Origin: Verrucomicrobiaceae bacterium | Lineage (GTDB): Bacteria > Verrucomicrobiota > Verrucomicrobiia > Verrucomicrobiales > Verrucomicrobiaceae | Direction of reading: 5' to 3' | DNA length: 64,000 nt | Assembly (NCBI GenBank): GCA_027490195.1 | Contig: JAIXYN010000006.1 | Span: forward strand, 6,930-70,929 | Shown: positions 3,000 through 44,648 of the stretch, piece after piece | Position numbering within the stretch: position 1 is the first letter of the stretch | Layout of the letters: every line of letters starts with the position of its first letter | Notes under the pieces: model-generated | What the model saw: the letters and a program-made list of their open reading frames with translations, nothing else | Database searches by the model: none | What the model was told of the DNA's origin: nothing | Position numbers and translations under genes: made by a program

Positions 3000-3235
3000 C
3001 ATATGGGGCGGAGATTGTCAGGATAACAACCTAGAAGCAAGACTGAAAAACGCGGACCGATACCAAGGGCACTTTCGGAGATCTGCTGCGGCAGCATGAG
3101 GTGCAGGCGGCAGGCTCCCCAAAATCCTCCTCTGCCTGTGACTCCTCCTCTTCCTCCCGGGAAGGCACCATGGACGCAGCGGCCGCTTCCATCACCGAAA
3201 CCCGCAGCGCCTAATTTACCAATTTCTACCACACC

Positions 3236-3453
3236 ATGCAATCCAATACTAGGCGTGCCAGCGCCTAGACCAGCTCCGCGTGCGCGACAATCCGCTGACC
3301 ACCCTGCCTGCGGGCTTTGCCGCGATGCCGAGTACCATCGAAATCACCGGCAAGAAGATCCGTCAAGAGTATCTGCCGCAGGAACTGCGCGGCCACATGA
3401 GCACTGAGAAGCCGCCCGTGAAACCGAAGGTGATCGTGAAGCCCGTGAAGTGA
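3236..3453 (+). pseudogene. Probable leucine-rich-repeat gene remnant
   Basis: Frame 3253-3453 reads ACQRLDQLRVRDNPLTTLPAGFAAMPSTIEITG... (LxxLxVxxNxLxxLP pattern) with no in-frame start; the ATG at 3236 (ACACCATG context) is in another frame and stops after 10 codons. Confidence 0.45.
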
Positions 3454-3473
3454 CTGCGCGTCGCGGCATTCGC

Positions 3474-3888
3474 TCAACGCTTCGCCCTCGGCGCTGGATC
3501 AGCACCGGATGTCGCGACTGGAAAAGAGACCGGGTAAAGTGGAGTCTTGGGGCAAAGATCTCCCGTGGGGAGGATCTCGGGAGCTGGCTCTGGAAGGCTG
3601 TCGACCTGGTTCAAGCGAGTATTCAGCATCCTTCTACTTCTCGGTTTGCCAAAAAGCGGATAATCAACGAGCGGATAATACCTCGCGTTGAAAGCCTTGT
3701 ATGCAGCCGACACCGGGTCGATAGCCACCACCTGCACCGGCTGCCGCATCTGCGCGCTGAGTACCGCAAAGCAGGCGATCAAGCCACCGCAGAGGCACAG
3801 GATGAGGCCGATGCAGAAAACGAGGCCCCTGCCGAACCCTGCGCCAGAAACCGACAGCATCGCTGTGAGGCGGTATGAGGCACCCATG
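3474..3888 (-). CDS. Hypothetical single-pass membrane protein (start uncertain)
   Basis: Part of ORF 3474-4160; hydrophobic segment GLVFCIGLILCLCGGLIACFAVL followed by a Pro-rich tail. Start coordinate is approximate. Confidence 0.5.
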
Positions 3889-4354
3889 GATGGAAGGCGA
3901 ATGCTGCAGGCCATGCCACGCTTATACGGGATCAGCGGAAGGGCTGTCAAGATTTCGCAGGGGAGGCTGTTGTTCCGAGGGGATTGACCTGGAAAACTCA
4001 TCCGCCTTCGTTTTGTCTCCCGGAGGGAGAAGAGTGATTTGCCGGTGGTGGAGCGAAACAGCGCAGCGGTGCAGCGGGAACTACCGGAGTTGGCGCACGA
4101 AACACCTGGTTCCAGAGCCGCATGCCGAAGGTATTCGAGAAGCCTTCCACCAACCAGCATCCACGAGGAGTCTGCGCACGGCTATCGCATACCTCTGGCA
4201 TGCGGCCTTGATCCAAAATGCGTGGTTGGCATGATCCGGTGGTTCTCGCTCGGCAGGCCTCGCTTCATCACCGGCTATTTTCCATGCTCCCTCCGGGAGC
4301 CCATGCAAGGCCCCATAAAAGCGGGAACGCATCATCATCCCAGCAAAGCATCAA

Positions 4355-4762
4355 CTACTTCCCCGCTTTGCCTTCGGCTTCCACATCCTTCTTCTCTTCC
4401 TCACCTTCCACAGGAAGATCCGGCAGCGGCGGGGGGAGATTGTCGATGATGTTCAGCAGCGGCACGCCACGCTCGACGGATTTGTCGAGGCGGAAGAAGA
4501 TCTGGGGGCTGCTGCGCAGTTTAACGCGCTTGTAGAGATCCCGCTGGATGAACCCACGAGCCTTGACGAGCTTGGCCAGGGCGGCGTCCTGCTGGTGTGG
4601 CTTGCCGATGACACCCACATAAACAAAGCACTGCCGCATGTCCGGTGTGGGGCTGACGTCGTGAATGGTCACGAGACAGTCTTCGTTGCGGAAATCCTTC
4701 TCGAGGATGGTGCTGAGCTCACGACGAATGAGCTCGCGTACTTTATCGACTCGGAGGGACAT
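4355..4762 (-). CDS. rbfA: Ribosome-binding factor A
   Basis: MSLRVDKVRELIRRELS...VSPTPDMRQCFVYV...VKLRSSPQIFFRLDKSVERG; directly downstream of infB. Confidence 0.95.
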   Translation of the reverse strand: MSLRVDKVRELIRRELSTILEKDFRNEDCLVTIHDVSPTPDMRQCFVYVGVIGKPHQQDAALAKLVKARGFIQRDLYKRVKLRSSPQIFFRLDKSVERGVPLLNIIDNLPPPLPDLPVEGEEEKKDVEAEGKAGK

Positions 4763-4772
4763 ACAGTAGTTT

Positions 4773-4848
4773 AAAGTTTCAGGTTTAATGTTTCAAGTTA
4801 CGAGCCAGGTGCTTCGCGATGAACTTGAAACTTTAAACCTTGGACTTG
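4773..4848. repeat. AT-rich inverted repeat built from about 7-bp units between infB and rbfA
   Basis: Left arm AAAGTTTCAGGTTTAATGTTTCAAGTT (4773-4799) is complementary, with a few mismatches, to AACTTGAAACTTTAAACCTTGGACTTG (4822-4848); 22-nt loop. Confidence 0.75.
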
Positions 4849-4861
4849 TAACTTGGTTTGA

Positions 4862-7105
4862 TCAGAGAGTTTGGGCGATTTTTTCGAGTTCGTAGCACTC
4901 GATGACGTCGTTTTCTTCGTAGTCGCTGAAGCCGGAGAGCTTGATACCGCACTCCATGCCGTTGCGCACTTCGTTGACTTCGTCCTGGAAGCGGCGCAGC
5001 GTTTCAAAGCCGCCGTCATACACAGCCTGGCCGTCACGCAGCACGCGGGCGCGCTGCTTGCGGTTCATGACACCATCGGTGACGACGGAGCCGCCGACGA
5101 AGCCCTTGTTGACTTTGAAGACCTGCTTCACGCGGGCATGGCCGATGACCTTTTCGCGGGTGATCGGATCGAGCAATCCGGCCATGGCTTCCTTCACCTG
5201 ATCGATGAGTTCGTAGATGATGGAGTAGAGCTTCACCTGCACCGTCTCGCGCTTGGAAACGACGAGGGCCTTGTTCTCCACCTTGACGTTGAAGCCGATG
5301 ATGATGGCGTCCGAGGCGCTGGCCAGCAGGACGTCGGACTCGTTGATGGCGCCGACTTCCTTGTGCAGGATGTCGAGGTTGCACTTGTCGCTCTTGATGT
5401 CGGTGAGGCACTTGGCCACCGCTTCCACAGAGCCCTGCACGTCGCACTTGAGGACGACCTTGAGGGCCTTCTTGTTGCTGTCCTCGATGCTGGCAAAGAG
5501 GTGCTCCAAAGTGGAGCGGCGCGGCACGTTGAGCTTCTTTTGACGGATCTCTTCGAGGCGCTCCTCGCTGAGCTTCTTCACGTCGCGCTCGCTGTTCATG
5601 ACGACGACTTCGTCGCCCACATGCGGCATGTCGCTGAAGCCGATGACTTCGCAGGGCATGCCCGGAAGAACAGCTTTGATGGACTCGCCGCGGTCGTTGA
5701 TGATCGCCTTGACCTTGCCCCAGAGCGGGCCGCAGATGAAGGGCTGGCCGACTTTGAGCGTGCCCTGGCCGATGATTACGGTGGCCACGGGTCCTTTGCC
5801 GGCCACCATGGAAGATTCGATGACCGTCGCACGAGGAGAGGCCTTGGGGTCTGCCTTGAGTTCCAGCACTTCGGCCTGGAGGGACATGGTTTCGAGGAGG
5901 TTTTCGAGTCCGAGACCAGTTTTGGCCGAGACTTCCATGACTTCGATCTCACCACCCCAGTCAACTGGCGCAAGGCCGATGTCCTGCAACTGGCTTTTAA
6001 CGCGCAGGATGTTGGCTCCGGGAAGGTCACACTTGTTCAGCGCCACCATGAGCTGCACTTTAGCGGCCTTGGCATGACTGAGAGCTTCCTTGGTCTGCGG
6101 CATGATGCCGTCGTCCGCTGCGATGACGAGGACGACGATGTCCGTGACATTGGCACCACGGGCGCGCATGGCCGAGAAGGCGGCATGGCCGGGTGTGTCG
6201 ATGAATGTGATGGGCTTGCCGTTGTGCCAGATGCAGTAAGCACCGATGTGCTGCGTGATGCCACCCGCTTCTCCCGCAGTGACTTCCGTCTTGCGCAGGG
6301 CGTCCAGCAGCGAGGTTTTGCCATGGTCAACGTGACCCATGAAAGTGATGATCGGGGCGCGGAGTTCCAGCTTCTCCTCCTCCACCTCTTCAACGACCTG
6401 GGCGACAGGTTCAACGATGACTTCCTCCACCTTGTGGACGCCGCCGCCTTTTTCACGCTTGTCGCGCTCCAGCTTGAAGCCGTGCTTCTCGCAGATTTTT
6501 TCGGCAATCTCAATGTCGATGGCCTTGTCAGCGCTGGCGAAGACCTTGAACGCGATGAGTTCAGAAATGATCTTGAAGGGCTTCAGGCCCATCTTGTCCG
6601 CCAGATCCTTGACCACGAAAGGTGGCTTCAGGTGGATGATTTTTTCACCGCTTTCACCGAGTTCAAATTCAGGCACCACGACCTCGGCAGGAGGGAGGTG
6701 CACGATCGGGACGATCGGCTTCGGCGGGGTGGGGTCATTCAGCAGAGAAATGGGCGGCAGCGCATTCTGCTGGGCGTTTTCATCCACCGGACGTCGACGC
6801 ACCTTTGGCTTTTCGTCATCCTCAAAGAGGTTCAGCGCGGCAGCCTTGCGCTCATCCAGCGTCGGCTTGGGGGGCACCACAGGCTGTGGCTCCGGCACTG
6901 GCACGACTACTTTTTTGGCCCCTAAAGGCGGCAGCGAGTGGTCTTTAACCGGCCCTCTGGTCCGGGGCTTCTTTCCCTCAATCAACGACAGCACCTCACC
7001 TTTGACTTCTTTTTTGGGCTTGGCGCTTTCGACAGGCACAGCGTCCTCAACGACCTCGTCGGTGGGGGACTTGCTCTTTTTGGCGGATGAGGGTTTGCTG
7101 GGCAT
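4862..7105 (-). CDS. infB: Translation initiation factor IF-2
   Basis: G-domain motifs [24 protein letters not shown]; IF2 C-terminal domains (GMECGI). Confidence 0.98.
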
Positions 7106-7194
7106 GAGAAATTGAGATCGGGCGAGCGGCGTGGGAGGCTGGCTGGTCGTGAGTTGGGGGTTGGTTTGAAGTCGTTGTCATAGCGGCACAGGGG

Positions 7195-8460
7195 CTACTC
7201 CTTGGAAGGAGATGAAGCATGTGCTGCGGCTTTATCGAAAATCTGCTGGGCCAAGGCCTCGTTACCATCCAGCACCTCGGCGATGTCAGAGACATCGACT
7301 CCGGTGGCCAGTGTCTTGAGATCACCCATGCCGCCTTGGGTCAGCTGGCGGGCCACTTCTTCAGTGATGCCGAGAGCGTCCACGAGGTGATGCACCGCGC
7401 TGCCCATCTGGCCTTCGAAGACTTCGGCTGCGTGTTCATCCTTCTCGATGACGAGGTCCATGCCCACGAGGCGTGAAGTCAGGCGTGCATTCTGACCGCG
7501 ACGGCCGATGGCCTTCGAGAGGTCTTCGTCGCTGACGGTGAGGCGCGCTTCCTTCTTGTCCACGTTGACCGAGATGGAAATGACCTTGATCGGCTTGAGG
7601 GCTTCACGAACGAACTCAGCGGGATCCGACTTCCAGCGGATGATGTCCACTTTCTCGTTGTTCAGCTCGCGGACGATGTTCTTCACACGCGCGCCCCGCA
7701 GACCGACGCAGGCACCCACGGGGTCCACCTTTTCATCGGCGCTGTGCACGGCCACCTTGGTGCGGTATCCGGCCTCACGGGCGATACTGGCGATCTCCAC
7801 GGTGCGATCACCGATTTCGCTGACTTCAAATTCAAACAGACGGCGCACGAAATTCGGATGCGCACGGGAGAGGATGATTTCAGGGCCACGGCCGCTGTCT
7901 TTTTCCACCGCCTTGACGTAGAAGCGCATGCGGTCACCCGGGGTGTAGTCCTCGGTGGACACACGTTCCTTGGAGGTCATGACGCCTTCGAACTTGCCGA
8001 GGTCCACGACCACGTCGGATTTTTCAAAGCGACGCACCACGCCGCTGACGACGTCACCTGTGCGGTCCTTGAATTCCTCATAGAGGTTTTCTTTCTCCGC
8101 CATGCGGAGGCGCTGCAGCATTGTCTGCTTGGCAGTCTGCGCGGCGATGCGGCCCATGTTGTTGGGCGTGACTTCGACTTCGATCTCGTCACCCAGCACG
8201 GCGCTCTTCTTGAAGCGCTTGGCCGTTTCGAGCTGAAGCTCCTCCCAGCGGTTGGCCACAGTCTCCACCGCGATCAGTTTGGCGAAGGCCTTGATGGTTC
8301 CTTTGTCAGGATCAATGTCGATGCGCAGTTCCCGTGCGGGACCGATGCTTTTTTTGGAGGCGGCGAGCAATGCCTGTGACAGGGCCTCGACCATTTTGGT
8401 TCGGTCGATTCCTTTCTCTTTCTCGTAATAGTCGAAGAGGGCTTTGAGTTCGCTGATCAT
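7195..8460 (-). CDS. nusA: Transcription termination/antitermination factor NusA
   Basis: GRIAAQTAKQ, S1 and KH motifs (AREAGYRTKVAV, DPVGACVGLRGARV, AIGRRGQNARL); upstream of infB. Confidence 0.98.
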   Translation of the reverse strand: MISELKALFDYYEKEKGIDRTKMVEALSQALLAASKKSIGPARELRIDIDPDKGTIKAFAKLIAVETVANRWEELQLETAKRFKKSAVLGDEIEVEVTPNNMGRIAAQTAKQTMLQRLRMAEKENLYEEFKDRTGDVVSGVVRRFEKSDVVVDLGKFEGVMTSKERVSTEDYTPGDRMRFYVKAVEKDSGRGPEIILSRAHPNFVRRLFEFEVSEIGDRTVEIASIAREAGYRTKVAVHSADEKVDPVGACVGLRGARVKNIVRELNNEKVDIIRWKSDPAEFVREALKPIKVISISVNVDKKEARLTVSDEDLSKAIGRRGQNARLTSRLVGMDLVIEKDEHAAEVFEGQMGSAVHHLVDALGITEEVARQLTQGGMGDLKTLATGVDVSDIAEVLDGNEALAQQIFDKAAAHASSPSKE

Positions 8461-8484
8461 ATGAAATTCGTGTTTTCACCAGAC

Positions 8485-8510
8485 AAAAAAGAGCGGGGAA
8501 GACCCCACTC
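8485..8510 (-). terminator. Intrinsic terminator-like hairpin in the nusA leader
   Basis: Minus strand reads GAGTGGGG-TCTT-CCCCGCTC-TTTTTT and ends 25 nt before the nusA start. Confidence 0.7.
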
Positions 8511-8670
8511 TCGCCGTGAAAACGCTAATTCTGTCCGGGAAGGACGCGGATCATAAAGGAGGGCTAGGAATCAGCAAGCAGAAAAATTGTGTGGAAGTGC
8601 GCAGTTTTCTCAGGCGTTTTCATGAGGGCCAGTTTATTCCCATTTCCTTCAAGCCCAATCCCTTTCAAAC

Positions 8671-10095
8671 ATGCGCCTCCTGTTCTCTGCCCTCCTGGCC
8701 CTGATTCTCGCCCCACAAGGGGCCACGTCGGCATCTCCCCCTCCCAACATCGTTGTTATTTTTATGGATGATATGGGTTATGCTGATGTCGGTTGCTTCG
8801 GAGCGCAGGGTTATAACACCCCCAGCATCGACAAGCTGGCCGCCGAGGGCCGCAAGTTCACCAACTTCCACGTCGCCCAGCCCGTGTGCAGCGCCTCCCG
8901 CACCGCCCTGCTCACCGGCTGCTACCCGAACCGCCTGGGCATCCACGGTGCCCTCGGGCCAGGTGCCAAGCACGGCATCAATGCCGATGAAACGACCCTG
9001 GCCGAACTGGTCAAACAAAAAGGCTACGCCACCGCCGCCGTGGGCAAATGGCACCTGGGTTCCCTGCCCCAGTTTCTTCCCACCCAGCACGGCTTCGACC
9101 AATACTACGGCCTTCCTTATTCGAATGACATGTGGCCCTTCCATCCGCAGGCCAAAAAGGCTTTTCCCAAGCTGCCCATGGTCGAAAACGACCAGGTCGT
9201 GGATGCCGATGTCACGCCCGAGGATCAAACCCACCTCACCACGGACTACACCACCCGTGGCGTGCAGTTCATTGAGAAAAACAAGAACAAGCCATTCTTC
9301 CTCTACCTCGCGCACAGCATGGTTCACGTGCCCCTGTTTGTGAGCGACAAGTTCAAGGGCAAATCCGGCAAAGGCTTGTTTGGAGATGTCATGATGGAGG
9401 TGGACTGGTCCGTCGGCCAGATCGTGGACACGCTGAAGAAAAACGGCCTCGAAGACAACACCTGGATCATCCTCACTTCCGACAACGGCCCCTGGCTCAG
9501 CTACGGCGACAACGCCGGCAGCGCAGGCCCTCTGCGCGAAGGCAAAGGCACCTGCTGGGAGGGCGGCACGCGCGTGACGGGCATCATGAAATGGCCCGGC
9601 AAAATCCCCGCCGGCACCACCACGAACACGATGATGATGACCATCGATCTCCTGCCCACCATCGCCCACGTCATCGACGCGAAACTGCCTGATCACAAGA
9701 TCGACGGCCTCAACTGCTGGCCCATCGTCTCAGGCGAACCCGAGGCCAAAAACCCTCACGATTTCTACGCCTTCTACTACGAGCAAAATCAGCTCCAGGC
9801 CATCAGCAGCGGAGACGGCCGCTGGAAACTCCAGCTCCCCCACACCTACCGCAGCCTGCCCACGGACATCCCCCAGGCCACCGGCGGCAAACCGGTCAAC
9901 TACAAGACGGTGAAGATCACCGAGCCCGAGCTCTATGACCTCTACGGCGACCTCAGCGAATCCAAAAACATCGCCGCCCAAAACCCGGCCGAAGTGGCCC
10001 GGCTGCAAAAGCACGCCGAAACCATCCGTGCCGAACTCGGAGACAGTCTCATGAAGCTGCCCAGAGGCAGCGGCACGCGGGAAGCAGGAAAGTAG
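8671..10095 (+). CDS. Arylsulfatase (formylglycine-dependent sulfatase family), exported
   Basis: Signal peptide, PNIVVIFMDDMGY, CSASR (CxxxR) + TALLTG, GKWHLG, SDNG. Confidence 0.93.
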   Translation: MRLLFSALLALILAPQGATSASPPPNIVVIFMDDMGYADVGCFGAQGYNTPSIDKLAAEGRKFTNFHVAQPVCSASRTALLTGCYPNRLGIHGALGPGAKHGINADETTLAELVKQKGYATAAVGKWHLGSLPQFLPTQHGFDQYYGLPYSNDMWPFHPQAKKAFPKLPMVENDQVVDADVTPEDQTHLTTDYTTRGVQFIEKNKNKPFFLYLAHSMVHVPLFVSDKFKGKSGKGLFGDVMMEVDWSVGQIVDTLKKNGLEDNTWIILTSDNGPWLSYGDNAGSAGPLREGKGTCWEGGTRVTGIMKWPGKIPAGTTTNTMMMTIDLLPTIAHVIDAKLPDHKIDGLNCWPIVSGEPEAKNPHDFYAFYYEQNQLQAISSGDGRWKLQLPHTYRSLPTDIPQATGGKPVNYKTVKITEPELYDLYGDLSESKNIAAQNPAEVARLQKHAETIRAELGDSLMKLPRGSGTREAGK

Positions 10096-10105
10096 CGGAG
10101 ACGCT

Positions 10106-10130
10106 GGTTCGAACCCTACATCGCGCACCA
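10106..10130 (+). other. Degenerate tRNA 3'-end fragment (att-like remnant)
   Basis: GGTTCGAACCCTACATCGCGCACCA has a T-loop, a 3' acceptor strand and CCA, but no 5' half (no D or anticodon arm) upstream. Confidence 0.55.
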
Positions 10131-10229
10131 TCTGCACCGTTCGCCACGTCGCAACATTCTGCGACAAATGGTTCAAAATCAACGATGCGAGCCAAATCCG
10201 CATGCGACTGGCACCTAACGCGAAGAAAG

Positions 10230-10318
10230 GATTAACGTCGGAACTCACCGACACGCCGCCTTGGACTCACCCAACCTCACAAGACGACGACGTGTTCGGT
10301 GCAGTGTCATAGTTCAGC
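10230..10318 (-). mobile_element. attC-like integron cassette recombination site
   Basis: Minus strand: GCTGAAC (R'')-tatgac-ACTGCACC (L'')-central stem-GGTGAGT (L')-tccgac-GTTAATC (R'). L'' has one extra base at position 4 relative to L', and there is a second unpaired A. Confidence 0.65.
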
Positions 10319-10397
10319 TTAGAGTTGCCCCCGATGTGGCTGGGTCTGTGGGGGATGCTGAACTCATGGTGTCCGGTGTCTCGTTGTAGCTGGTAGC

Positions 10398-10625
10398 TCA
10401 AAATAGGGAGCCGCCCTTTACTCCCGTGATAATGAAGATAACGCCCGCAACGATGGGCATAACTGAATATGCTACTACATGAATAATCGGTCCGGCCATG
10501 GCTCCAAAACGTTGCTTCATCGGCTCCAACTTGTTCAGCTTATGTGGATTGGTGAATCGAAGAAGCGTCATGTATAAACCTCCGCAAAGGATGAAGGTTC
10601 CTATTCCAATGGTGATCCAGTTCAT
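10398..10625 (-). CDS. Small two-TM membrane protein (75 aa), AT-richer than the host
   Basis: Two hydrophobic segments; directly upstream of the attC-like region and in the same orientation. Confidence 0.7.
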   Translation of the reverse strand: MNWITIGIGTFILCGGLYMTLLRFTNPHKLNKLEPMKQRFGAMAGPIIHVVAYSVMPIVAGVIFIITGVKGGSLF

Positions 10626-10738
10626 GGGTTTGAGAATGTATGTGTTTGGGTTGTCTCAGGACAGGTTATACATGTCCTCACGAACAGACGTCCGTACAGT
10701 GGTAAGGTGAATGTATCAGCCCAGAATGGAGTCTGGTC

Positions 10739-10796
10739 GCGGGGTGTCAAAAGGAAGCTTTTCGCCGTCCGCCCCCTATTCCTTTTAACACCCCGC
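10739..10796. repeat. 18-bp inverted repeat (one mismatch) with a 22-nt loop
   Basis: GCGGGGTGTCAAAAGGAA (10739-10756) and TTCCTTTTAACACCCCGC (10779-10796). Confidence 0.75.
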
Positions 10797-10864
10797 TCCT
10801 ACTCCTCCAAGCGGTTTAGAAGAGGTTTGAGCACCTCGGCATTGCTGATCAAGACTTAGAGTTG

Positions 10865-11272
10865 CTACAGCTTTTGAAGAAAATCGCCGGGGTTGATCGG
10901 GGGCACTGGCCCTTTCAAAAAGCCGGCTTCATCTCGGGTCACCAGCCAGTCCACGCCGCTGGCCGCTGCCGCAGCGGCAATCAAGGCATCTTCGTAATCC
11001 GTGATGCCATAGCCAAGAGCTTCCAGGGCCTCGTCCTGCCCCACTGTGGCCACAGTAGCCCAGGTGAGGAGGTCACGAATCATCTCCAAAGCATAAACCT
11101 CACCGCGCTTCCTGGCAGTGATGTAGAAAACCGTCGCAATCCCGTGCCAGGCCACAAAAATCTCAAACCCACGTTGATCGCATTCATCCAGAACTGCCTG
11201 GCTCGCAGTGTAAAACGGCAGCCTCTGCTCGACAATGTCCAGAAGGATATTGGTATCGAGAAAAACGCGCAT
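10865..11272 (-). CDS. PIN-domain (VapC-like) toxin
   Basis: MRVFLDTNILLD...DYEDALIAAAA...WLVTRD acidic PIN motifs. Confidence 0.9.
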   Translation of the reverse strand: MRVFLDTNILLDIVEQRLPFYTASQAVLDECDQRGFEIFVAWHGIATVFYITARKRGEVYALEMIRDLLTWATVATVGQDEALEALGYGITDYEDALIAAAAAASGVDWLVTRDEAGFLKGPVPPINPGDFLQKL

Positions 11273-11283
11273 TCGATCTCAGG

Positions 11284-11541
11284 TTAGACGCCGTACTTTT
11301 CCTGAAAATGTGCCATGCGCACCTCTTCCGTGGTCTGTGAATCCTGGCCTTTTGCCGCACCCGCGTACTTGCGTGCCCAAGCCCCTGCCCCACCCTTGTT
11401 CGTCTTCGGGGGCTGCGCTGCAGCTTTCACAATCTGAATCAGAAAGGTGGAACCCATTTCAGCCACGATACGCAGACTGTCGCCTTGATGTAAATCAAGG
11501 CTACGCACCTGTTCGGCAGGAATCTGTTTGGTGATGGTCAT
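11284..11541 (-). CDS. Putative antitoxin (AbrB/MazE-like)
   Basis: Small gene 11 nt upstream of the PIN gene; LDLHQGDSL resembles the swapped-hairpin motif. Start could be 11565. Confidence 0.65.
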   Translation of the reverse strand: MTITKQIPAEQVRSLDLHQGDSLRIVAEMGSTFLIQIVKAAAQPPKTNKGGAGAWARKYAGAAKGQDSQTTEEVRMAHFQEKYGV

Positions 11542-11913
11542 GACAAGGATTTCCTGCTTGAGCATACCTCAGACAAGCCGGATTCCAAACCCAATTCCAG
11601 AGCTTGACGCCCACAGCCTCCAGCGTGGAGCCATAAGCCACCGACCAGGATCGAAATTACGAGGCGAGCAAATAGGTGCTGGAAGGAAGGGCGGGGATCA
11701 TCTTGATCACCGTTTAGAAGCTGTGGGTGTGGCGGATCGCAGAGGCAGCAGGGTGATCCCTCTCCTGGCAGAAGCGCACTTTCACCAGGCTCTGGGTGCC
11801 AGTCCCCACCCTTGGCAGCGAGTCACTTAGCAGCAGTTTTCGTGCCTAGATTGCATTAAAGGTTGTCACATTCGGCAACATGACTAGCATCGCGCTGGCT
11901 CCAACCAAGCCAT

Positions 11914-11934
11914 CAACCAACCAACCAACCAACC
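11914..11934 (+). repeat. (CAAC)5 simple tandem repeat abutting the amtB start codon
   Basis: CAACCAACCAACCAACCAACC immediately followed by ATG at 11935. Confidence 0.85.
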
Positions 11935-13269
11935 ATGACCCTTCCCATGCTGAAAAGCACCGGGAGCGGGGCCTTGCGGAGCTATTCCGTGATGGCCGCG
12001 CTCGTATTTGCCACCACCTCCGCCCATGCTGCGGACGGCACCGCCCCCTCCATCAACAGCGGTGACACCGCCTGGCTGCTGATCTCGACAGCGCTGGTGC
12101 TCTTCATGATGATCCCCGGACTGGCCCTGTTCTACGCAGGTCTGGTGCGGTCCAAGAACATCCTTTCCATCCTGATGCAGTGCTTTGCGCTGACCGCTAT
12201 CATGAGCCTGGTATGGCTGGCTTGCGGGTATTCGCTGAGCTTTTCTGACGGCAGCTCGATCATCGGCGGCTTTGACAAGGTGTTCCTCCAGGGCGTGACG
12301 CCAGACACCGTGCGGAGTGACTGCCCCACGATTCCAGAACTGCTGCACTTCGCCTACCAGATGATGTTTTTCCTGATCACGCCAGGCTTGTTCATTGGCG
12401 CGTTTGCCGAGCGCATGAAGTTCAAGGCCATCCTGGTTTTCAGCATCGTCTGGAGCTTGGCAGTTTACGTGCCTTGCTGCTACGGTGTGTGGCACAAAGC
12501 AGGCGCTTTCTTTGGCCTGACCGGCGTGATCGACCTCGCAGGCGGCATCGTGGTGCACATCACCGCCGGCGTAGCCGCTCTGGTGGCCTGCGTGATGGTA
12601 GGTCCGCGCAATGGTTTCCCCGGTGCGCAGCTCATGCCCCATAATCTGCCCTTGACCATCGTCGGCGCAGGCATGCTGTGGGTGGGCTGGTTCGGCTTCA
12701 ATGCGGGTAGCCAGCTCGCCGCCAATGGCGCTGCGGCCATGACCCTGGTCGTCACCCATCTCTCGGCCTGCGCCGCCTCCGTGGTGTGGATGCTCATCGA
12801 GTGGGTTCGCAACGGCAAGCCGAGTGCCCTGGGCATTGCCACTGGCTCAATTGCCGGGCTGGCCGCGATCACCCCTGCCTCCGGCAAAGTGGGGCCCATA
12901 GGAGCCATCTGCATCGGGGCCATCTCCGCCTGGGTCTGCTGGCTGGCCTGCTCCAAGCTAAAGCATAAGTTTCGCTACGACGACTCCCTGGACGTCTTCG
13001 GCGTGCATGGCGTGGGCGGTTTCATCGGCACCATGCTCGTCGCGGTCTTCGGTTCCAAGGCCTTCGCTGGTGGCTTGGGCGATTTCAGCATCGGCAAGCA
13101 ACTGGTGACTCAGGGTCTGGCCTCGCTTTATACGATTCTGCTTTCTGGCATCGGCAGTTTCGTGATCCTCAAGGTCATCGATCTCACCATGGGACTTCGT
13201 GTCACCCATGAGGAAGAAAACCAGGGGCTCGATCTCGCCGAACATGGCGAGGCAGCCTACAACGATTAA
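11935..13269 (+). CDS. amtB: Ammonium transporter
   Basis: GDTAW, PGLALFYAG, DLAGG.VVH, WFGFNAGS, DDSLDVFGVHG, GLDLAEHGE. Confidence 0.97.
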   Translation: MTLPMLKSTGSGALRSYSVMAALVFATTSAHAADGTAPSINSGDTAWLLISTALVLFMMIPGLALFYAGLVRSKNILSILMQCFALTAIMSLVWLACGYSLSFSDGSSIIGGFDKVFLQGVTPDTVRSDCPTIPELLHFAYQMMFFLITPGLFIGAFAERMKFKAILVFSIVWSLAVYVPCCYGVWHKAGAFFGLTGVIDLAGGIVVHITAGVAALVACVMVGPRNGFPGAQLMPHNLPLTIVGAGMLWVGWFGFNAGSQLAANGAAAMTLVVTHLSACAASVVWMLIEWVRNGKPSALGIATGSIAGLAAITPASGKVGPIGAICIGAISAWVCWLACSKLKHKFRYDDSLDVFGVHGVGGFIGTMLVAVFGSKAFAGGLGDFSIGKQLVTQGLASLYTILLSGIGSFVILKVIDLTMGLRVTHEEENQGLDLAEHGEAAYND

Positions 13270-38737: not shown

Positions 38738-41113
38738 TTACTGAGCCTGCGGCTTCGTGCCAGCCTGTGCTTTGTCTTCGGTTTTGGCCGCCGTGGTGGG
38801 CTTGTGATCAAGCTCGAGAAGATCACGCATGATGTGGATGGTCTCCATTTTCACAGGCTCAATGCCATAGGGGAATTTGGACTCCTCATTGCCGCTGTCG
38901 TCATCCTTGGATGCCGTGCGCATGCCAGAGTTCATTTCCTTGCTGAAAGCAGACTCAGGCACGAGGTCAGGCTTGTCCACGTTGTCCAGTGTGAGGTGGT
39001 AGGTCTTGAAGCCGTTGTCTTTGATGCGCTCAGCGACCTCCTTAACGCGCTTGGCGCGTTCATCGACCTGCTTATCGCGGCGGGCTTCGGTGTCGATGCG
39101 TTCCTTCTCACGCTCCTGCAGGTTCAAAGAGACGGTGTTGCGGTCGATCTTTTCCTTCAGGCGGTTGGACTCCTCGACCACGTTTTGGAACTCAGGACTG
39201 GCGGCGACGCGGCTCTTCACACGTGAGTTGATCTCATCGATCGGAAACGCGTCTTTGCGGAAGAGAGGGTATTTACGCGGCGGGATCGTGTCGTAGGGCA
39301 GTGGGTTTTCAGCGGCAGATTCACCGATGTCTAGCACGTCGCGGATCGACGGCAGCGGGATGTCGGATTCGACACCTTTGAGCTGGGTGGAACCACCGGC
39401 GATGCGGTAGAACTTCTGGATCGTTACCTTGAGGTCGCCAGCGCCTTTTTTGTCGCTAAAGAAGGGCATGTAACGCTCCACCGGAAGGATGGTCTGCACC
39501 GTGCCTTTGCCAAAGGAGGACTTGTCCCCCACGATGAGCGCGCGGCGGTAGTCCTGCAGCGCTGCCGCCAAAATCTCCGAAGCCGAGGCACTGGCTTTGT
39601 TGATGAGAACGATCATTGGACCGTCATAGACAGGCTTCTCGTTTTCGCAGTCGCGCCAAGTGATGCTGCCACGCCAGTCCTTGGCCTGCACCACCGGACC
39701 GGCAGGAATGAAGAGACCGGTGAGCTTGATAGCTTCATCCAGAGAGCCGCCACCGTTATCGCGCAGGTCGAGCACAAGACCGTCGATTTTCTCCTTCATC
39801 AGACGACGCAGTAGGCGCTCCACATCAACACTCGTGCTGACCGTGTTGTTTTCCATGTCGGCATAGAAATTGGAGAGATTGATCCAGCCGACTTTGAGCG
39901 TTTTGCCAAGGTCCGGAGGAGTGACAAGGAGTTCGGCATTGGCGAGCTTCTCCTTCAGCGGCACTTCATCACGCACGATGGCGATGATACGATTGCCGGA
40001 GGGATCGTCAGCAGGGACGATCTTGATGCGGACCGTGGTGCTCTTTTCACCACGGATCATATCAACAATCTTCTGCAGCTTGAGATACTTCACATCAACG
40101 AAATCTTCGTCTCCCTGGGCGACGGCGATGATGCGGTCATTGAGCTTAAGTTCCCCCTGCTTGTCAGCCGGACCACCAACAACGATGCCCTGAATCTCAG
40201 CGCCATCATCCTTCTGGCCGAGCAAAGCGCCGATGCCAACGAGCTTGTGCTGCATGTGGATTTTGAAATTGTCGCTCTCATCCGTGCTCATGTACTCCGT
40301 GTGCGGGTCATAGGCAGTGGCCAGACTGGAAAGGAAGAAGTTCACCACGTCCTTGGTGTCGTTCTCGTCGATGCTCTCAAGCAGACGCGTGTAATCTTTG
40401 AGCACTCGCTCTTTCGGAGTCAGGTCCTTGTCGTCCTTTTCCTTCTTGGCGGCGACGACTTTGGCAGCATCTGCCGCCGGCTTGGGAGCTTCGACAACCT
40501 TCTTGTCCTCTTTCACGGTCTCAGGCTTGGCCTCAGCGGTGCCAGCTTTCTTGGCAGCAGCTTTTTCCGCCTTTTTCTTTTCATCGCGCTGACGGGTTTC
40601 ATCCGCAATGCGCTCTGCCAGAAGATTGTCTTCGATGATTTCGAGCCACAGCTTGTCCTGGGCGGCTTTGTCCTTCGGCCATGGTGCCTTATCGCGCTTG
40701 ATCTCAATGGTGCTCTTCGTGTCGAAGGTGAACTTGTTGTTCTCCAGCGCCTTCTTGAGGAAGTCCACGCGCTCCTTCACGCGCTCCTTGTAGATGTCGT
40801 AGATCTCGATGGCAGGGCTGATGTTCCGCATCAGCACATGGTCGTCGAGCGTCGTCTCATACTTGTCCTTGAAGCCCGCGACATCCTGCTCGGTGAAGAA
40901 GATATGCTTGAAGTCGAGCATGTTCAGGTAGTTATGCAGCATCTCGCCGGAAACCTTGTCGTCGAAGTCCTGCTTCGAGTAGTGGTGGTTTTGCAGCATG
41001 TAGGCGACGTGCATGGCCACCTGGCCAAAATTGGTCTCCGCTTGCGCCGAGGGGATAAGAAGCGCGAGGGCGGAAGCCGCAGCGGCCACAGGGGTGAGTA
41101 AAAAGCGAGTCAT
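38738..41113 (-). CDS. prc: Tail-specific C-terminal protease (S41) with PDZ domain
   Basis: DPHTEY, GIGALL PDZ, LDLRDNGGGSL, SASASEI, GKGTVQ, TIQKFYR. Confidence 0.93.
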   Translation of the reverse strand: MTRFLLTPVAAAASALALLIPSAQAETNFGQVAMHVAYMLQNHHYSKQDFDDKVSGEMLHNYLNMLDFKHIFFTEQDVAGFKDKYETTLDDHVLMRNISPAIEIYDIYKERVKERVDFLKKALENNKFTFDTKSTIEIKRDKAPWPKDKAAQDKLWLEIIEDNLLAERIADETRQRDEKKKAEKAAAKKAGTAEAKPETVKEDKKVVEAPKPAADAAKVVAAKKEKDDKDLTPKERVLKDYTRLLESIDENDTKDVVNFFLSSLATAYDPHTEYMSTDESDNFKIHMQHKLVGIGALLGQKDDGAEIQGIVVGGPADKQGELKLNDRIIAVAQGDEDFVDVKYLKLQKIVDMIRGEKSTTVRIKIVPADDPSGNRIIAIVRDEVPLKEKLANAELLVTPPDLGKTLKVGWINLSNFYADMENNTVSTSVDVERLLRRLMKEKIDGLVLDLRDNGGGSLDEAIKLTGLFIPAGPVVQAKDWRGSITWRDCENEKPVYDGPMIVLINKASASASEILAAALQDYRRALIVGDKSSFGKGTVQTILPVERYMPFFSDKKGAGDLKVTIQKFYRIAGGSTQLKGVESDIPLPSIRDVLDIGESAAENPLPYDTIPPRKYPLFRKDAFPIDEINSRVKSRVAASPEFQNVVEESNRLKEKIDRNTVSLNLQEREKERIDTEARRDKQVDERAKRVKEVAERIKDNGFKTYHLTLDNVDKPDLVPESAFSKEMNSGMRTASKDDDSGNEESKFPYGIEPVKMETIHIMRDLLELDHKPTTAAKTEDKAQAGTKPQAQ

Positions 41114-41220
41114 GGTGGGGGTCGTCCAGATCTATAACGAACCTCGCGGCACGTTTTGCGTTCAGATTTTGCCTTTTCTGTGTTGAAATGTCCAACGCTT
41201 TCCCGTCTTTCGCCTTCTCC

Positions 41221-41838
41221 ATGCCTCAAATCTCCACCTACACCGGCGGTATCGCCGCCACAAACGGCTACCTGCTCACCCTGCCCAGCGGCACCCTCCT
41301 TGTGGATGCGCCGGATGGAATCGCCGCCTGGCTTAAGAAGCAAAATGTGAAGGTGGACGTCCTCTTCCTCACCCATCAGCACTTTGACCACGTCCTGGAT
41401 GTCGCCGCTTTGCAGGCTGAGCACGGCTGCCGGGTTTACTCATTTGCCCCCTATTCACGCGAGCTGACTCTGGAGATCCTCTACGGTGCCGTCACAGGCA
41501 GCCCCTTCTCCGTCCCCCCATTTGTGGTGGATGAGGTTCTCGAAGGTCAAGGCCAGATCGAAGTCCTTGGCGAAGCTTGGAAGCTCTACCACGTGCCCGG
41601 CCATTCTCCAGACAGCCTCTGCTTCCACCTTCCCTCTCAGAATCTGCTCTTCGGAGGCGACGTGCTCTTTCTCGACGGCGTCGGCCGCACCGACTTCCCC
41701 AACGGTTCCGGTGCGCTGCTGCTCAGCGGCATCATCAAAAAACTCTTTGTCCTGCCTGATGACACCCGCGTCTTTCCGGGTCATGGCGACGACACCACCA
41801 TCGGCCGTGAACGCCTCGAAAACCCCTTCCTCACTTGA
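41221..41838 (+). CDS. Metallo-beta-lactamase-fold hydrolase (glyoxalase II-like)
   Basis: THQHFDH, PGHSPDS, GDVLF, GRTDF, PGHG. Confidence 0.9.
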   Translation: MPQISTYTGGIAATNGYLLTLPSGTLLVDAPDGIAAWLKKQNVKVDVLFLTHQHFDHVLDVAALQAEHGCRVYSFAPYSRELTLEILYGAVTGSPFSVPPFVVDEVLEGQGQIEVLGEAWKLYHVPGHSPDSLCFHLPSQNLLFGGDVLFLDGVGRTDFPNGSGALLLSGIIKKLFVLPDDTRVFPGHGDDTTIGRERLENPFLT

Positions 41839-41862
41839 TCGGCCATTCCGGCTCCGTCTCCC

Positions 41863-41890
41863 TTCATTCTGATTTCGTCATTCGTCATTT
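41863..41890 (-). repeat. AATGACGAA-type intergenic repeat, half copy
   Basis: Minus strand AAATGACGAATGACGAAATCAGAATGAA; same motif at 52711 and 62483. Confidence 0.7.
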
Positions 41891-41896
41891 CCTCCA

Positions 41897-42967
41897 ATGC
41901 CCCGTTCCCTTCATGACCTGACCTTTGACCAGCTGCGCGAGGAGATCGTGGCCGCAGGTCTGCGTCCGGCACATGCGGGCACGCTCTGGAACACCTTGCA
42001 TTTCAAGGCGATGGCAGATCCCCTCGCCCGCGAGGATCTCCTCCCGCCCCTGCGCAAGTGGCTCACTCAGGTGCTCAGCGACGGCTCATGGATGCTCGAC
42101 GTACCCCCGGTCTCATTAGACACCGCGAGCAGCGATGGTTTGACTCACAAATTCCTCCTCCGCATGGCCGATGCGCAGGAGATCGAGACCGTCATCATGG
42201 GCTACACCGGCCGCCACACCGCCTGCGTCAGCACCCAGGCGGGCTGCGCCATGGGCTGTGTCTTCTGCGCCACCGGCCAGATGGGTTTCGTGCGGCATCT
42301 GCGCCCCGGCGAAATCGTGGCCCAGGTGCTGCATGCGCAGCGCAGTGTGCGTGCCAATGGCGGCAAGGGACTGCGCAATCTCGTGTTCATGGGCATGGGC
42401 GAGCCCCTGCACAACTACGATGCCGTGATGACCGCCCTCGACATCATCTGCGACACCCGGGGGCTGAACATTGGCCCCAGCAAGATCAGCGTTTCCACCG
42501 TCGGCGTGGTGCCCGGCATCCTGCGCATGGCGGCGGAAAAGCGCCCCTACAATCTCGCCGTCAGCCTGCACGCCGCCACCGAGGAAGAGCGCGCCAAACT
42601 GATCCCCGCCAACCAGCGCTGGCCGCTGTCCGATCTCATCGCCGCCTGCCGCAGCTACAATGCGCAGACCGGCCGCCGCATCTTCTTCGCCTGGACCCTG
42701 ATCCAAGGCGTCAACGACACCCCCGAGCATGCCCGGTTGATCGCCGAACTGCTCCAGGGCCTGGACGCCCACATCAATCTCATCCCGCTCAATCAAACGG
42801 ATGGCTACGATGGCAGCGAAAGCAGTGACAGCGCCGCAGACATCTTCCACCGCATCCTTCAAGATGCAGGCTTCCCCTGCACCATTCGTCAGCGCCGCGG
42901 CATTGATGTCGCCGCAGGCTGCGGCCAGCTCAAGGCCGCAAAAAGTGTCCGGCGCAAGGCGGCTTAA
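41897..42967 (+). CDS. rlmN: 23S rRNA (A2503) C2-methyltransferase, radical SAM
   Basis: CVSTQAGCAMGCVFC, MGMGEPLHN, SLHA, AGCGQL. Confidence 0.93.
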   Translation: MPRSLHDLTFDQLREEIVAAGLRPAHAGTLWNTLHFKAMADPLAREDLLPPLRKWLTQVLSDGSWMLDVPPVSLDTASSDGLTHKFLLRMADAQEIETVIMGYTGRHTACVSTQAGCAMGCVFCATGQMGFVRHLRPGEIVAQVLHAQRSVRANGGKGLRNLVFMGMGEPLHNYDAVMTALDIICDTRGLNIGPSKISVSTVGVVPGILRMAAEKRPYNLAVSLHAATEEERAKLIPANQRWPLSDLIAACRSYNAQTGRRIFFAWTLIQGVNDTPEHARLIAELLQGLDAHINLIPLNQTDGYDGSESSDSAADIFHRILQDAGFPCTIRQRRGIDVAAGCGQLKAAKSVRRKAA

Positions 42968-43077
42968 GGGTCCCCATGCCATTGCATGAACTTCCCGTGA
43001 ACGCCGCGTGAATTCATCTTCATAAATCGCGCACCACTTGCCGTGATCGCTCGATGGGGCGTATCGTTGCTTCAGCC

Positions 43078-43728
43078 ATGTCCAACCGTATCTTCCTGCT
43101 GAACCTTTTCGCCTGCCTGTGGTGCTGCATCATTCTGAACTTCCGCTTTCAGCTCTCGGGTCATCATTACTACGCCTTCATGCTGTGGAATCTCTTCCTG
43201 GCAGCCATCCCACTAGGCCTCAGCCTCGGCCTGCGCCAGATCAATCGCCTCGTGCTGGCAGTGCCTCTGCTCGCGGTCTGGCTGCTGTTCTTTCCCAATG
43301 CGCCCTACGTCCTCACCGACCTGATGCATCTCAATGAACACAACGCTCATGTCCCCAAGTGGCTCGATCTCCTCATGCTGCTCTCCTTTGGCTTCGTCGC
43401 GCTGTGGTTCGGCTTTCAGTCCCTCCATATCGTCCAGCATTGGTTTGCACTGAAGTTTTCCCATGCCACCGCTTGGTGCGTCACCGTGGGGTCACTCGGC
43501 CTGAGCGGGTTCGGTGTTTACCTCGGCCGCTTTGACCGCTGGAACAGCTGGGACCTCCTCCACCGGCCCGTCTCACTGCTCAGCCGCATCGCCTCCTACA
43601 TTCTTCATCCCATGGCCCACACCCACACCTGGGGCTTCACCCTTGGCTTTGGCACCCTGCTCATCCTCTCCTACCTCTTCTGGTTTTCGTCAGTGCAAAC
43701 CGCTCAGGACAGTCGTAAGCTCGACTAG
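43078..43728 (+). CDS. DUF1361 family membrane protein
   Basis: WNLFLAAIP, WLLFFPNAPYVLTDLMHL, GVYLGRFDRWNSWD. Confidence 0.88.
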   Translation: MSNRIFLLNLFACLWCCIILNFRFQLSGHHYYAFMLWNLFLAAIPLGLSLGLRQINRLVLAVPLLAVWLLFFPNAPYVLTDLMHLNEHNAHVPKWLDLLMLLSFGFVALWFGFQSLHIVQHWFALKFSHATAWCVTVGSLGLSGFGVYLGRFDRWNSWDLLHRPVSLLSRIASYILHPMAHTHTWGFTLGFGTLLILSYLFWFSSVQTAQDSRKLD

Positions 43729-43730
43729 CC

Positions 43731-44150
43731 GTGCCTCACTACGATTCCAGCCGCGACCACCTCATGCTCTTTGATGGCATCTGCCATCTCTGCAATGGGA
43801 GCGTGCGCTTCATCGTGAAGCGCGATCCTCAGGGCAAGATCAAATTTGCGCCCATTCAAAGTCCCTTGGGCAGCGCGCTCTACGCACAGCACGGCCTCGA
43901 TCCCACAGCACCCAGCGCCATGCTTTTCATCACACCGCGCGGCGCATTCCAAGCCAGCGAAGCAGCCCTCGAAATCGCCCGCACGCTCGGCGGCATGTGG
44001 AAATTCGCGCTCGTTTTCAAACTCCTGCCCCGTGCCCTGCGCGACGCCGCCTACTACATCATCGCCCGCAACCGCTACCGCTGGTTTGGCAAAGATGAGT
44101 CCTGCATGATGCCGACAAAAGAATTGTCCGACAGATTAGTAGAGACATGA
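43731..44150 (+). CDS. DCC1/DUF393 thiol-disulfide oxidoreductase-like protein
   Basis: FDGICHLCNGSV, FAPIQS, RDAAY..IARNRYRWFGK..SC. Confidence 0.9.
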   Translation: MPHYDSSRDHLMLFDGICHLCNGSVRFIVKRDPQGKIKFAPIQSPLGSALYAQHGLDPTAPSAMLFITPRGAFQASEAALEIARTLGGMWKFALVFKLLPRALRDAAYYIIARNRYRWFGKDESCMMPTKELSDRLVET

Positions 44151-44557
44151 ACATGGTCGTCGCCACCCTTGAAGTCATCGCCGCCGAGCGGGCCAACACG
44201 CACTTCGACAAGGCTTTTGGAATGGTCGATGCGTTGCTGAAAGCATACGGCGAAAGTGATCTTGCAACGCGGTTGTGGGAGGACATACCGTCATCGACTC
44301 CAGTGGAAACAGTTTCAGATCTATACGGAATACTGGTTTGGAGCACCCCTGACAATGGCCACGCGCTCACCCAGGCCACCGATTCGTGGCTCACTGAATG
44401 TGCATGTGAAAGAAAATGCCATGTGGCCTTGAACCTCGACACCTATCCCTTTGCAACCTACCAAGAAATGCGTGACCGCCTGGCTGGCGTCGCGACGGCT
44501 TGGCCAAGGTTGGAACAACATTGTCAAAGGTTGCTTGCTGAACGTCCAAAGGACTGA
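44147..44557 (+). CDS. Orphan hypothetical protein, AT-richer than its flanks
   Basis: 136-aa ORF; its ATG overlaps the DCC1 stop (ATGA). Confidence 0.7.
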   Translation: MNMVVATLEVIAAERANTHFDKAFGMVDALLKAYGESDLATRLWEDIPSSTPVETVSDLYGILVWSTPDNGHALTQATDSWLTECACERKCHVALNLDTYPFATYQEMRDRLAGVATAWPRLEQHCQRLLAERPKD

Positions 44558-44584
44558 AAAGACCTCGATAATCCACCCCCGGCC

Positions 44585-44619
44585 TCCCCGCACTTACTCC
44601 CCGCACTTACTCCTCGCAC
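44585..44619. repeat. 13-bp tandem repeat upstream of nadE
   Basis: TCCCCGCACTTAC twice plus a partial TCCTCGCAC. Confidence 0.75.
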
Positions 44620-44648
44620 ACCCCAAACCCTCCGTGCTAGGTTCCACC

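Follow-up and report, generated by a model that had tools for sequence, protein, structure and literature searches.

A probable solitary integron attC site, and a possible gene-less cassette, in the remnant of a tRNA-Val island of a Verrucomicrobiaceae bacterium

The subject of this study is a candidate integron recombination site (attC) on the minus strand of a 64,000-nucleotide stretch of a Verrucomicrobiaceae genome (contig JAIXYN010000006.1, positions 6,930 to 70,929), which is called the window here and to which all coordinates refer unless a contig or locus is named. The site lies between two convergent genes, a sulfatase gene on the plus strand that ends at 10095 and a gene for a predicted membrane protein of 75 amino acids (aa) on the minus strand (10398..10625), which ends at 10398, 79 nt upstream of the attC. 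With 46% G+C, the latter gene differs from the window as a whole (59%), and it may be independent cargo or part of a larger cassette. The surroundings belong to an older element. On the plus strand, 10106..10130 holds the last 25 nt of a tRNA-Val(CAC) gene (T-loop, 3' strand of the T-stem, acceptor strand and CCA), which marks where an island was formerly attached, and on the minus strand 10131..10197 holds a C-terminal stub (~25-30 codons) of the island tyrosine integrase. A vapBC-like toxin-antitoxin pair (a 135-aa PIN protein and its 93-aa partner) is encoded on the minus strand at 10865..11565. In the relative G021, the same place (6209-12493 of locus L027) contains an intact tRNA-Val gene, a 426-aa integrase (PF00589) with which the stub aligns, three small cargo genes, a vapBC pair to which that of the window is 88% identical, and a Rep-like gene. 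The host genome itself has an intact tRNA-Val(CAC) gene on contig C81. From the tRNA fragment, the integrase stub and the counterpart in G021, it is concluded that 10096 to ~11900 is the remnant of a decayed integrative island. The candidate attC is located just inside this remnant, adjoining the integrase stub.

As read from the sequence, the candidate spans 89 nt (10318..10230, minus strand), and it is recovered also by a covariance model of its family (R3) and by a strict structural descriptor, both described below. It starts with R'' (GCTGAAC, 10318-10312) and a 6-nt spacer (TATGAC, 10311-10306), followed by L'', which consists of ACT (10305-10303), an extra, bulged G (10302) and CACCGA (10301-10296). 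After a second unpaired base, an A at 10295, the arms of the inner stem (CACGTCG, 10294-10288, and CGGCGTG, 10258-10252) enclose a centre of 29 nt. The other half comprises L' (TCGGTG-AGT, 10251-10243), a second 6-nt spacer (TCCGAC, 10242-10237) and R' (GTTAATC, 10236-10230). In this arrangement ACT[G]CACCGA[A]CACGTCG pairs with CGGCGTG-TCGGTG-AGT, and both bulges are found on the top-strand 5' arm only. When R'' and R' are compared with RYYYAAC/GTTRRRY, AAC and GTT are exact and three of the four degenerate positions fit in each box. The distances between the R boxes and the bulge are 9 and 9 nt, compared to 8-9 nt in reference attCs (class 1, cyanobacterial plasmid and host). Three further motifs on the minus strand enter the argument below: GTTCAGC (10363-10357), 38 nt upstream of R'' and its exact complement; CTACAAC (10389-10383), which starts 7 nt past the stop codon of the 75-aa gene; and GTTAGGT (10219-10213), a bare 7-mer.

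One cyanobacterial attC was found to have inner boxes nearly identical to those of the candidate. Therefore, all GTDB genomes were scanned with a pattern taken from these boxes (GAAC-N7-CTGCACCG-N35-65-CGGTGAG-N7-GTT). The scan matched 62 loci, compared to ~2-5 expected by chance, and 61 of the 62 follow a single consensus from end to end (GCCGAAC AAACCGG CT[G]CACCGA[A]C GCCGGG ... CCCGGC GTCGGTGAG CCGGGAC GTTCGGC). Their hosts are mostly Verrucomicrobiota, and Planctomycetota, Cyanobacteria, Lentisphaerae and Acidobacteriota are also represented. The sites stand in same-strand arrays with up to 14-16 sites per 8 kb, and at several loci a homologue of the integron integrase IntI adjoins them on the opposite strand. 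Four of these neighboring integrases were compared with TIGR02249 (cut-off 265 bits), where those of loci L055, L092 and L064 reached 403, 433 and 391 bits, respectively. By their same-strand arrays and adjoining integron integrases, the 61 members of this family are attC sites. In the consensus structure the inner pairs covary, and a G and an A remain unpaired on the 5' arm; the bulged G and A of the candidate fall in the same columns.

The distribution of the CTGCACCGAAC...GTCGGTGAG family (loci L036-L097) also extends to Armatimonadetes and Ignavibacteriales, and Cyanobacteria carry a subtype of 80-81 nt. Members were also seen in metagenome-assembled genomes (MAGs) labelled Bifidobacterium and Chitinophaga, which are probably mis-binned.

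The covariance model R3 was built from 18 family members, with the candidate excluded. R3 matched the candidate over its full length (1-97) with 53.0 bits (E 2.2e-13), a score that is partly circular and to that extent counts for less, since 22 conserved positions are fixed by the candidate-derived search pattern. The next match in the window had 11.9 bits, and real array members range from 23 to 106 bits, so that the candidate falls within their range. At conserved columns outside the search pattern, the candidate fits 10 of the 15 that are at least 90% conserved (p = 0.004) and 16 of the 26 that are at least 80% conserved (p = 0.0009); these matches take in the second bulged A and the stem after it. 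At the level of sequence, the decisive evidence for an attC is this homology to a family that is present in real arrays, and the candidate is almost certainly a genuine integron attC. An earlier note on this DNA had described an 89-bp element with full attC anatomy, and this description holds: all motifs that it listed were found on the minus strand, and R3 gave its 53 bits without the candidate in the model. Two checks named in the note, an attC covariance model and a search for related sites elsewhere, gave positive results, the former with R3 as the model of the candidate's own family (a model of the host's resident family, R1, gave no match) and the latter with the 61 loci in GTDB genomes, in arrays beside IntI.

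False positives are concentrated among single attC hits (PMC4889954). The candidate could be a look-alike produced by chance, in which AAC and GTT happen to end an ordinary imperfect hairpin of the decaying island DNA. The fold of the element is in line with this, since its z-scores are unremarkable: the top strand folds with -15.9 kcal/mol (z ~-1.3 to -1.6) and the bottom strand with -11.7 kcal/mol (z 0 to -0.4), the latter no better than shuffled sequences. As bona fide attCs in the host genome range from z = +0.4 to z = -5, folding energy is no useful test. A loose descriptor used earlier gave ~2 equally good chance matches per simulated genome and was replaced by a strict one, which demands AAC..GTT, a bulged C or G that follows a T and is spaced 8-9 nt from either R box, and stems with a minimum of 3+4 bp. 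These features were drawn from class 1 plasmid arrays, a cyanobacterial plasmid integron and the host attCs. On ~100 kb of reference integrons the strict descriptor recovered 19 real attCs and no false ones. In 30 simulated 7-Mb genomes it matched on average 7.5 times per genome, with matches of at least 12 bp at 0.13 per genome and none of at least 13 bp. Its matches in the host genome comprise 18 sites of the resident family and 8 others, the latter in line with the simulation (7.5), and the candidate, with 13 paired bases, is the only one of these others above 9. Because the loose descriptor matched about twice by chance and the strict one, at the candidate's score, in none of the 30 simulated genomes, it is the geometry that carries the signal.

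Another covariance model, R2, was made of the trimmed cores of 11 reference attCs (10 class 1 and 1 cyanobacterial) and was rejected as a test. It failed on positive controls that are long or non-class-1 sites (OXA-1, arr-3, IMP-1, the cyanobacterial sites and the host attCs) and had no power.

The missing match with R1 also fits a look-alike, and the outer L stem is cut to 3 bp in the candidate compared to CCGG/CCGG in the family; the attC may therefore be partly decayed. Against a look-alike stand the boxes, which are identical one by one to those of the 61-member family with both bulges included, the score from a model that excludes the candidate and the significant identity outside the search pattern. 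A chance origin is thus extremely improbable and close to refuted.

To place the site within its genome, the host's other integron components have to be considered. An IntI-type gene was sought elsewhere in the host genome (G000) and found on contig C86, where 39748-46221 (loci L001 and L007) is a chromosomal integron. This gene matches TIGR02249 in two frames (positions 3-246 with 260 bits and 230-313 with 76 bits), with a frame change near codon 285-290, which is due to either a frameshift or an assembly error. The intact IntI of locus L055 is 76% identical to the host enzyme over 231 aligned residues. At least nine cassettes lie upstream of intI on the opposite strand, with attCs of one highly homogeneous family, and more pieces of array were found at the ends of contigs C4, C34, C53, C48 and C18 and near the start of C9. 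R1, the covariance model of this resident family, detected ~33 attCs in the host genome, some inside contigs and most at contig ends; the array is therefore fragmented in the assembly. R1 is overly specific in sequence; at the candidate it gave no match even with filters off, hence the cassette is not derived from the main family of the resident array.

A group of attC sites without integrase (CALIN, cluster of attC sites lacking an integrase) with four cassettes lies on the same contig as the candidate, at a distance of ~118-120 kb (C92:135103-137350, corresponding to 3104-5351 of locus L015, minus strand). Its open reading frames (ORFs) encode 238, 232, 139 and 98 aa. The attCs of this CALIN are mixed: two belong to the resident family, one is divergent and one is of the candidate's family. 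The last is the second strong host site of R3 (C92:137253-137350, 53.2 bits) and reads CT[G]CAGCGAAC...GTCGCTGAG; its L boxes show a C/G change that is compensated. Therefore, cassettes with the candidate's type of attC have entered the host genome before.

The candidate itself stands alone. No IntI-type tyrosine recombinase was found on the whole 272-kb contig (C92), in agreement with the earlier note, which had seen no integrase nearby. In a complete integron intI lies within 4 kb of the attC, and here the sole IntI-type gene is the one on contig C86. In the window no second attC was detected by R1, R3 or either descriptor, and near the candidate nothing was found at E<=10 (R1) or E<=0.6 (R3). 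The nearest other attC sites are those ~118 kb away. A CALIN was defined in 2016 as at least two attC sites within 4 kb on one strand with no intI nearby (PMC4889954), and a SALIN (single attC site lacking an integrase) as a single attC without integrase (bioRxiv 10.1101/2022.09.11.507474). Since only one attC is detectable, the candidate is a SALIN and not a CALIN, and neither intI, attI nor another attC is found in its neighborhood. As for the coding sequence (CDS) that is associated with a SALIN according to Loot et al., no ORF is contained in the 127-bp unit discussed below, and the 75-aa gene belongs to the element only if its boundary is at ~10711. A genuine solitary attC in the island remnant is therefore the probable state of the locus.

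The earlier note had seen a decayed cassette array here, in which CTACAAC..GTT would be an attC with its center deleted. In such a scenario the candidate would be the last recognizable site of a multi-cassette array, i.e., of a former CALIN, with the centre-deleted attC (10389-10357) as the end of a cassette with the 75-aa gene and GTTAGGT as a further core. The position of CTACAAC, 7 nt past a stop codon, is where an attC usually starts, CACCGGACAC (10378-10369) resembles the L'' box of the family, CACCGAACAC, at 9 of 10 positions, and CALINs are present elsewhere in the host genome. The geometry of the 33-nt stretch from CTACAAC to GTTCAGC is off, as only 4 nt separate R'' from CACCG compared to 10 in the family, no model supports it, and CTACAAC is complementary neither to TTCACC nor to any other nearby boundary. 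As an attC remnant, this stretch is unproven. The flanks are island DNA (integrase stub and vapBC) and not cassettes, and two family models (R1 and R3) and two descriptors give one attC within 4 kb. The array proposed earlier was thus not recovered, and a decayed array is an improbable explanation for the site.

If the attC is solitary, the cassette that it closes has to be delimited. The complementarity between R'' and the possible boundaries was measured in 40 consecutive cassettes of real arrays over the 4 positions beyond AAC/GTT. R'' complements its own 5' boundary, the R' of the preceding site, at all four positions in 28 of the 40 cassettes, and the integrated R' in 5; a complementarity of 3/4 was seen in 7. 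The R'' of the candidate is complementary at 4/4 to the GTTCAGC 38 nt upstream and at 2/4 to its integrated R', and the chance of finding a given 7-mer within 40-100 nt is ~0.2-0.6%. GTTCAGC resembles a core site and would be the left junction, with G as target and TTCAGC as the beginning of the cassette. The putative cassette then begins with TTCAGC (10362), ends with the G of R' (10236) on the minus strand and comprises 127 bp, namely 38-42 nt of 'cargo' and the attC, without any ORF. G|TT is found at both its junctions, which is what an insertion at a genomic GWT site would give, and solitary cassettes at genomic GWT sites, with imprecise excision, have been documented (bioRxiv 10.1101/2022.09.11.507474). 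The earlier note had pointed out both the exact complement of R'' and an ORF-less unit of about 130 bp; the former is present at 10363-10357 and the latter agrees with the 127-bp unit and its 4/4 complementarity, with the boundary as a putative one. That the attC closes a complete gene-less cassette at 10362..10236 has about an even chance of being correct.

Alternatively, the attC might close a larger cassette of ~476 bp (10711..10236) that includes the 75-aa gene, with GTTCAGC as an incidental sequence that forms the 5' arm of a local hairpin. Another reading of AGTTCAGC...GCTGAACT is an 8-bp inverted repeat that encloses a 30-nt loop. The similarity to the island of G021 ends at ACATT|CACC (~10711), where TTCACC complements R'' at 3/4, the 75-aa gene together with its leader has 46% G+C compared to 59% in the genome, and both the layout of leader, small ORF and attC and the size of 476 bp are typical of cassettes. 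Several features of the region are at odds with this. The base before TT at ~10711 is an A instead of the conserved G of core and attG sites, a gap of 79 nt separates the stop codon of the 75-aa gene from R'', and in G+C content the attC segment (57%) departs from the gene (46%). A search of metagenomes with the 75-aa protein gave one homologue, a distant one (63% identity, on soil contig L099), with no attC nearby, and in the closest relative of the locus (L028, see below) the 75-aa gene is kept and the attC is absent. Also, the 4/4 match of GTTCAGC within 38 nt would have to be attributed to the chance of ~0.2-0.6% given above. The 476-bp cassette is therefore considered unlikely.

Only one close relative of the locus was found, the assembly contig L028 (1.1 kb), which is ~94% identical and contains vapC, the 75-aa gene and the integrase stub. 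A search for 10190-10720 in 105 genomes of the genus gave nothing. L028 lacks a segment of 169 bp (10198..10366, minus strand), named Y, which holds the attC; its position is taken there by 54 nt from the 3' part of the integrase coding sequence. The left break between the two versions is at most 3 nt from the G|TTCAGC bond. No single clean insertion or deletion relates both versions, therefore at least two events must have taken place. By analogy with solitary cassettes described elsewhere, imprecise integrase-mediated excision might be one possibility for the cause of the difference. Neither the 169-bp segment as a whole nor its last 38 nt showed significant homology to the 3' end of the integrase (p = 0.13-0.9), and a comparison of the 3' end of the 75-aa gene with the integrase gave nothing significant either.

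For the 127-bp unit, the following mechanism can be proposed. The bottom strand of the attC would fold into an imperfect hairpin with an extrahelical C and T, an integron integrase would cut between A and C of the bottom-strand AAC, and the cassette would be placed at a genomic G/TT site by an insertion of the attC x attG type, which would leave G|TTCAGC at the left and G|TTAATC at the right. We infer this mode of arrival, like any present-day activity of the site. Several observations weigh against a complete mobile cassette of this kind. The right break compared to L028 (10198) is located away from any core site, and L028 does not provide a clean empty site, since 54 nt are replaced and not merely absent. 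The smallest cassette in arrays of the candidate's family has 228 bp, which is more than 127 bp, and the attC may be inert today, as the intI of the genome is read in two frames. That the unit is a complete, mobile and gene-less cassette, put at a genomic G/TT of a Verrucomicrobium by a non-class-1 integrase, is thus a tentative proposal that is rather doubtful as a whole. To our knowledge, a 127-bp cassette would be smaller than any other.

The 228-bp cassette was observed in an uncultured Verrucomicrobia MAG (L062), where it is present three times in one array (1725-2049, 2370-2694 and 4786-5111) with ~90% identity and without a convincing ORF. It consists of ~134 nt of G+C-rich cargo and an attC and is a candidate non-coding cassette.

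Some repeats were noticed in the island remnant and its vicinity. An exact 11-nt direct repeat, GCAACTCTAAG (minus strand), is present at 10318-10328, where it abuts R'', and at 10855-10865, after the stop codon of vapC. It was rejected as a target duplication, being at chance level for a 2.2-kb region and not kept in G021 or L028. An 18-bp inverted repeat at 10739-10796 (94% complementary, 22-nt loop), downstream of vapC and without a T-run after it, is kept in L028 and G021. It was rejected as an attC, since its GTT and GAC do not stand in the order of an attC and the repeat is part of the conserved DNA of the island. A stretch of ~75 nt (11693-11767) that lies upstream of the gene for an ammonium transporter (at 11935) has many scattered copies with 72-83% identity on three other host contigs (C32, C97 and C33) and in the relatives G021, G016, G005, G013 and G001. 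No Rfam family matches this stretch, which resembles a short dispersed repeat. Rfam scans at gathering and E-value thresholds gave nothing relevant.

In an annotation of the genome, 10096-11900 can be entered as a tRNA-Val island that is dead and later received an insertion of the integron type. A single attC hit is usually dropped as a likely false positive (PMC4889954); this one can be shown to be real without a recombination assay, through its membership of a family whose arrays stand beside integron integrases. The locus offers a natural example, outside Proteobacteria, of a solitary chromosomal cassette site, and it fits the recently proposed route of insertion at genomic sites. Very short gene-less cassettes deserve the attention of specialists, as does an attC family that is common to Verrucomicrobiota, Planctomycetota and Cyanobacteria. 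If the 127-bp unit were indeed a mobile cassette, the difference between the sister strains would record a natural insertion or an imprecise excision at a G/TT site. As portable recombination sites, empty cassettes of this kind could then give rise to new arrays or cause deletions, or they might provide a small RNA or a promoter.

The kind of element, a solitary cassette or SALIN, is already known and not new. Like SALINs (bioRxiv 10.1101/2022.09.11.507474), the candidate is a lone attC without nearby intI or second att site, has G|TT on both sides and resides in a genome with an integron, and the difference from a closely related strain lies precisely in this segment; imprecise excisions that alter the flanking DNA have been reported for SALINs in the same study. 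The SALINs described there consist of a CDS and an attC, whereas the unit with matching cores is ORF-less here and has 127 bp, and insertion at an attG would be a putative step, as no clean empty site was recovered. With CALINs (PMC4889954) the candidate shares an attC without neighboring integrase and a possible origin from degraded integron cassettes; CALINs differ in that at least two attC sites within 4 kb are needed, compared to the one found here. Short ORF-less cassettes are known from arrays, and the candidate's attC family includes one of 228 bp; the unit in the window has about half that size and is located outside any array. The attC sites of sedentary chromosomal integrons are reportedly conserved within a taxon. 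The candidate likewise fits into a sequence-conserved family that forms long chromosomal arrays, but this family spans several phyla in the GTDB scan and is not the dominant one in the host's integron. Compared with class 1 attCs, the bulge lies 9 nt instead of 8 nt from R'', and the extra base on the top strand is a G (C on the bottom strand), where aadA-type sites have a C on the top strand. The candidate and class 1 attCs (aadA2, aac(6')-IIa, catB3 and others) nevertheless have in common the R''/R' cores, unpaired spacers of ~5-6 nt, the 8-9-nt geometry and an L stem of 3 bp, followed by an extra base preceded by T and then by 6 bp.

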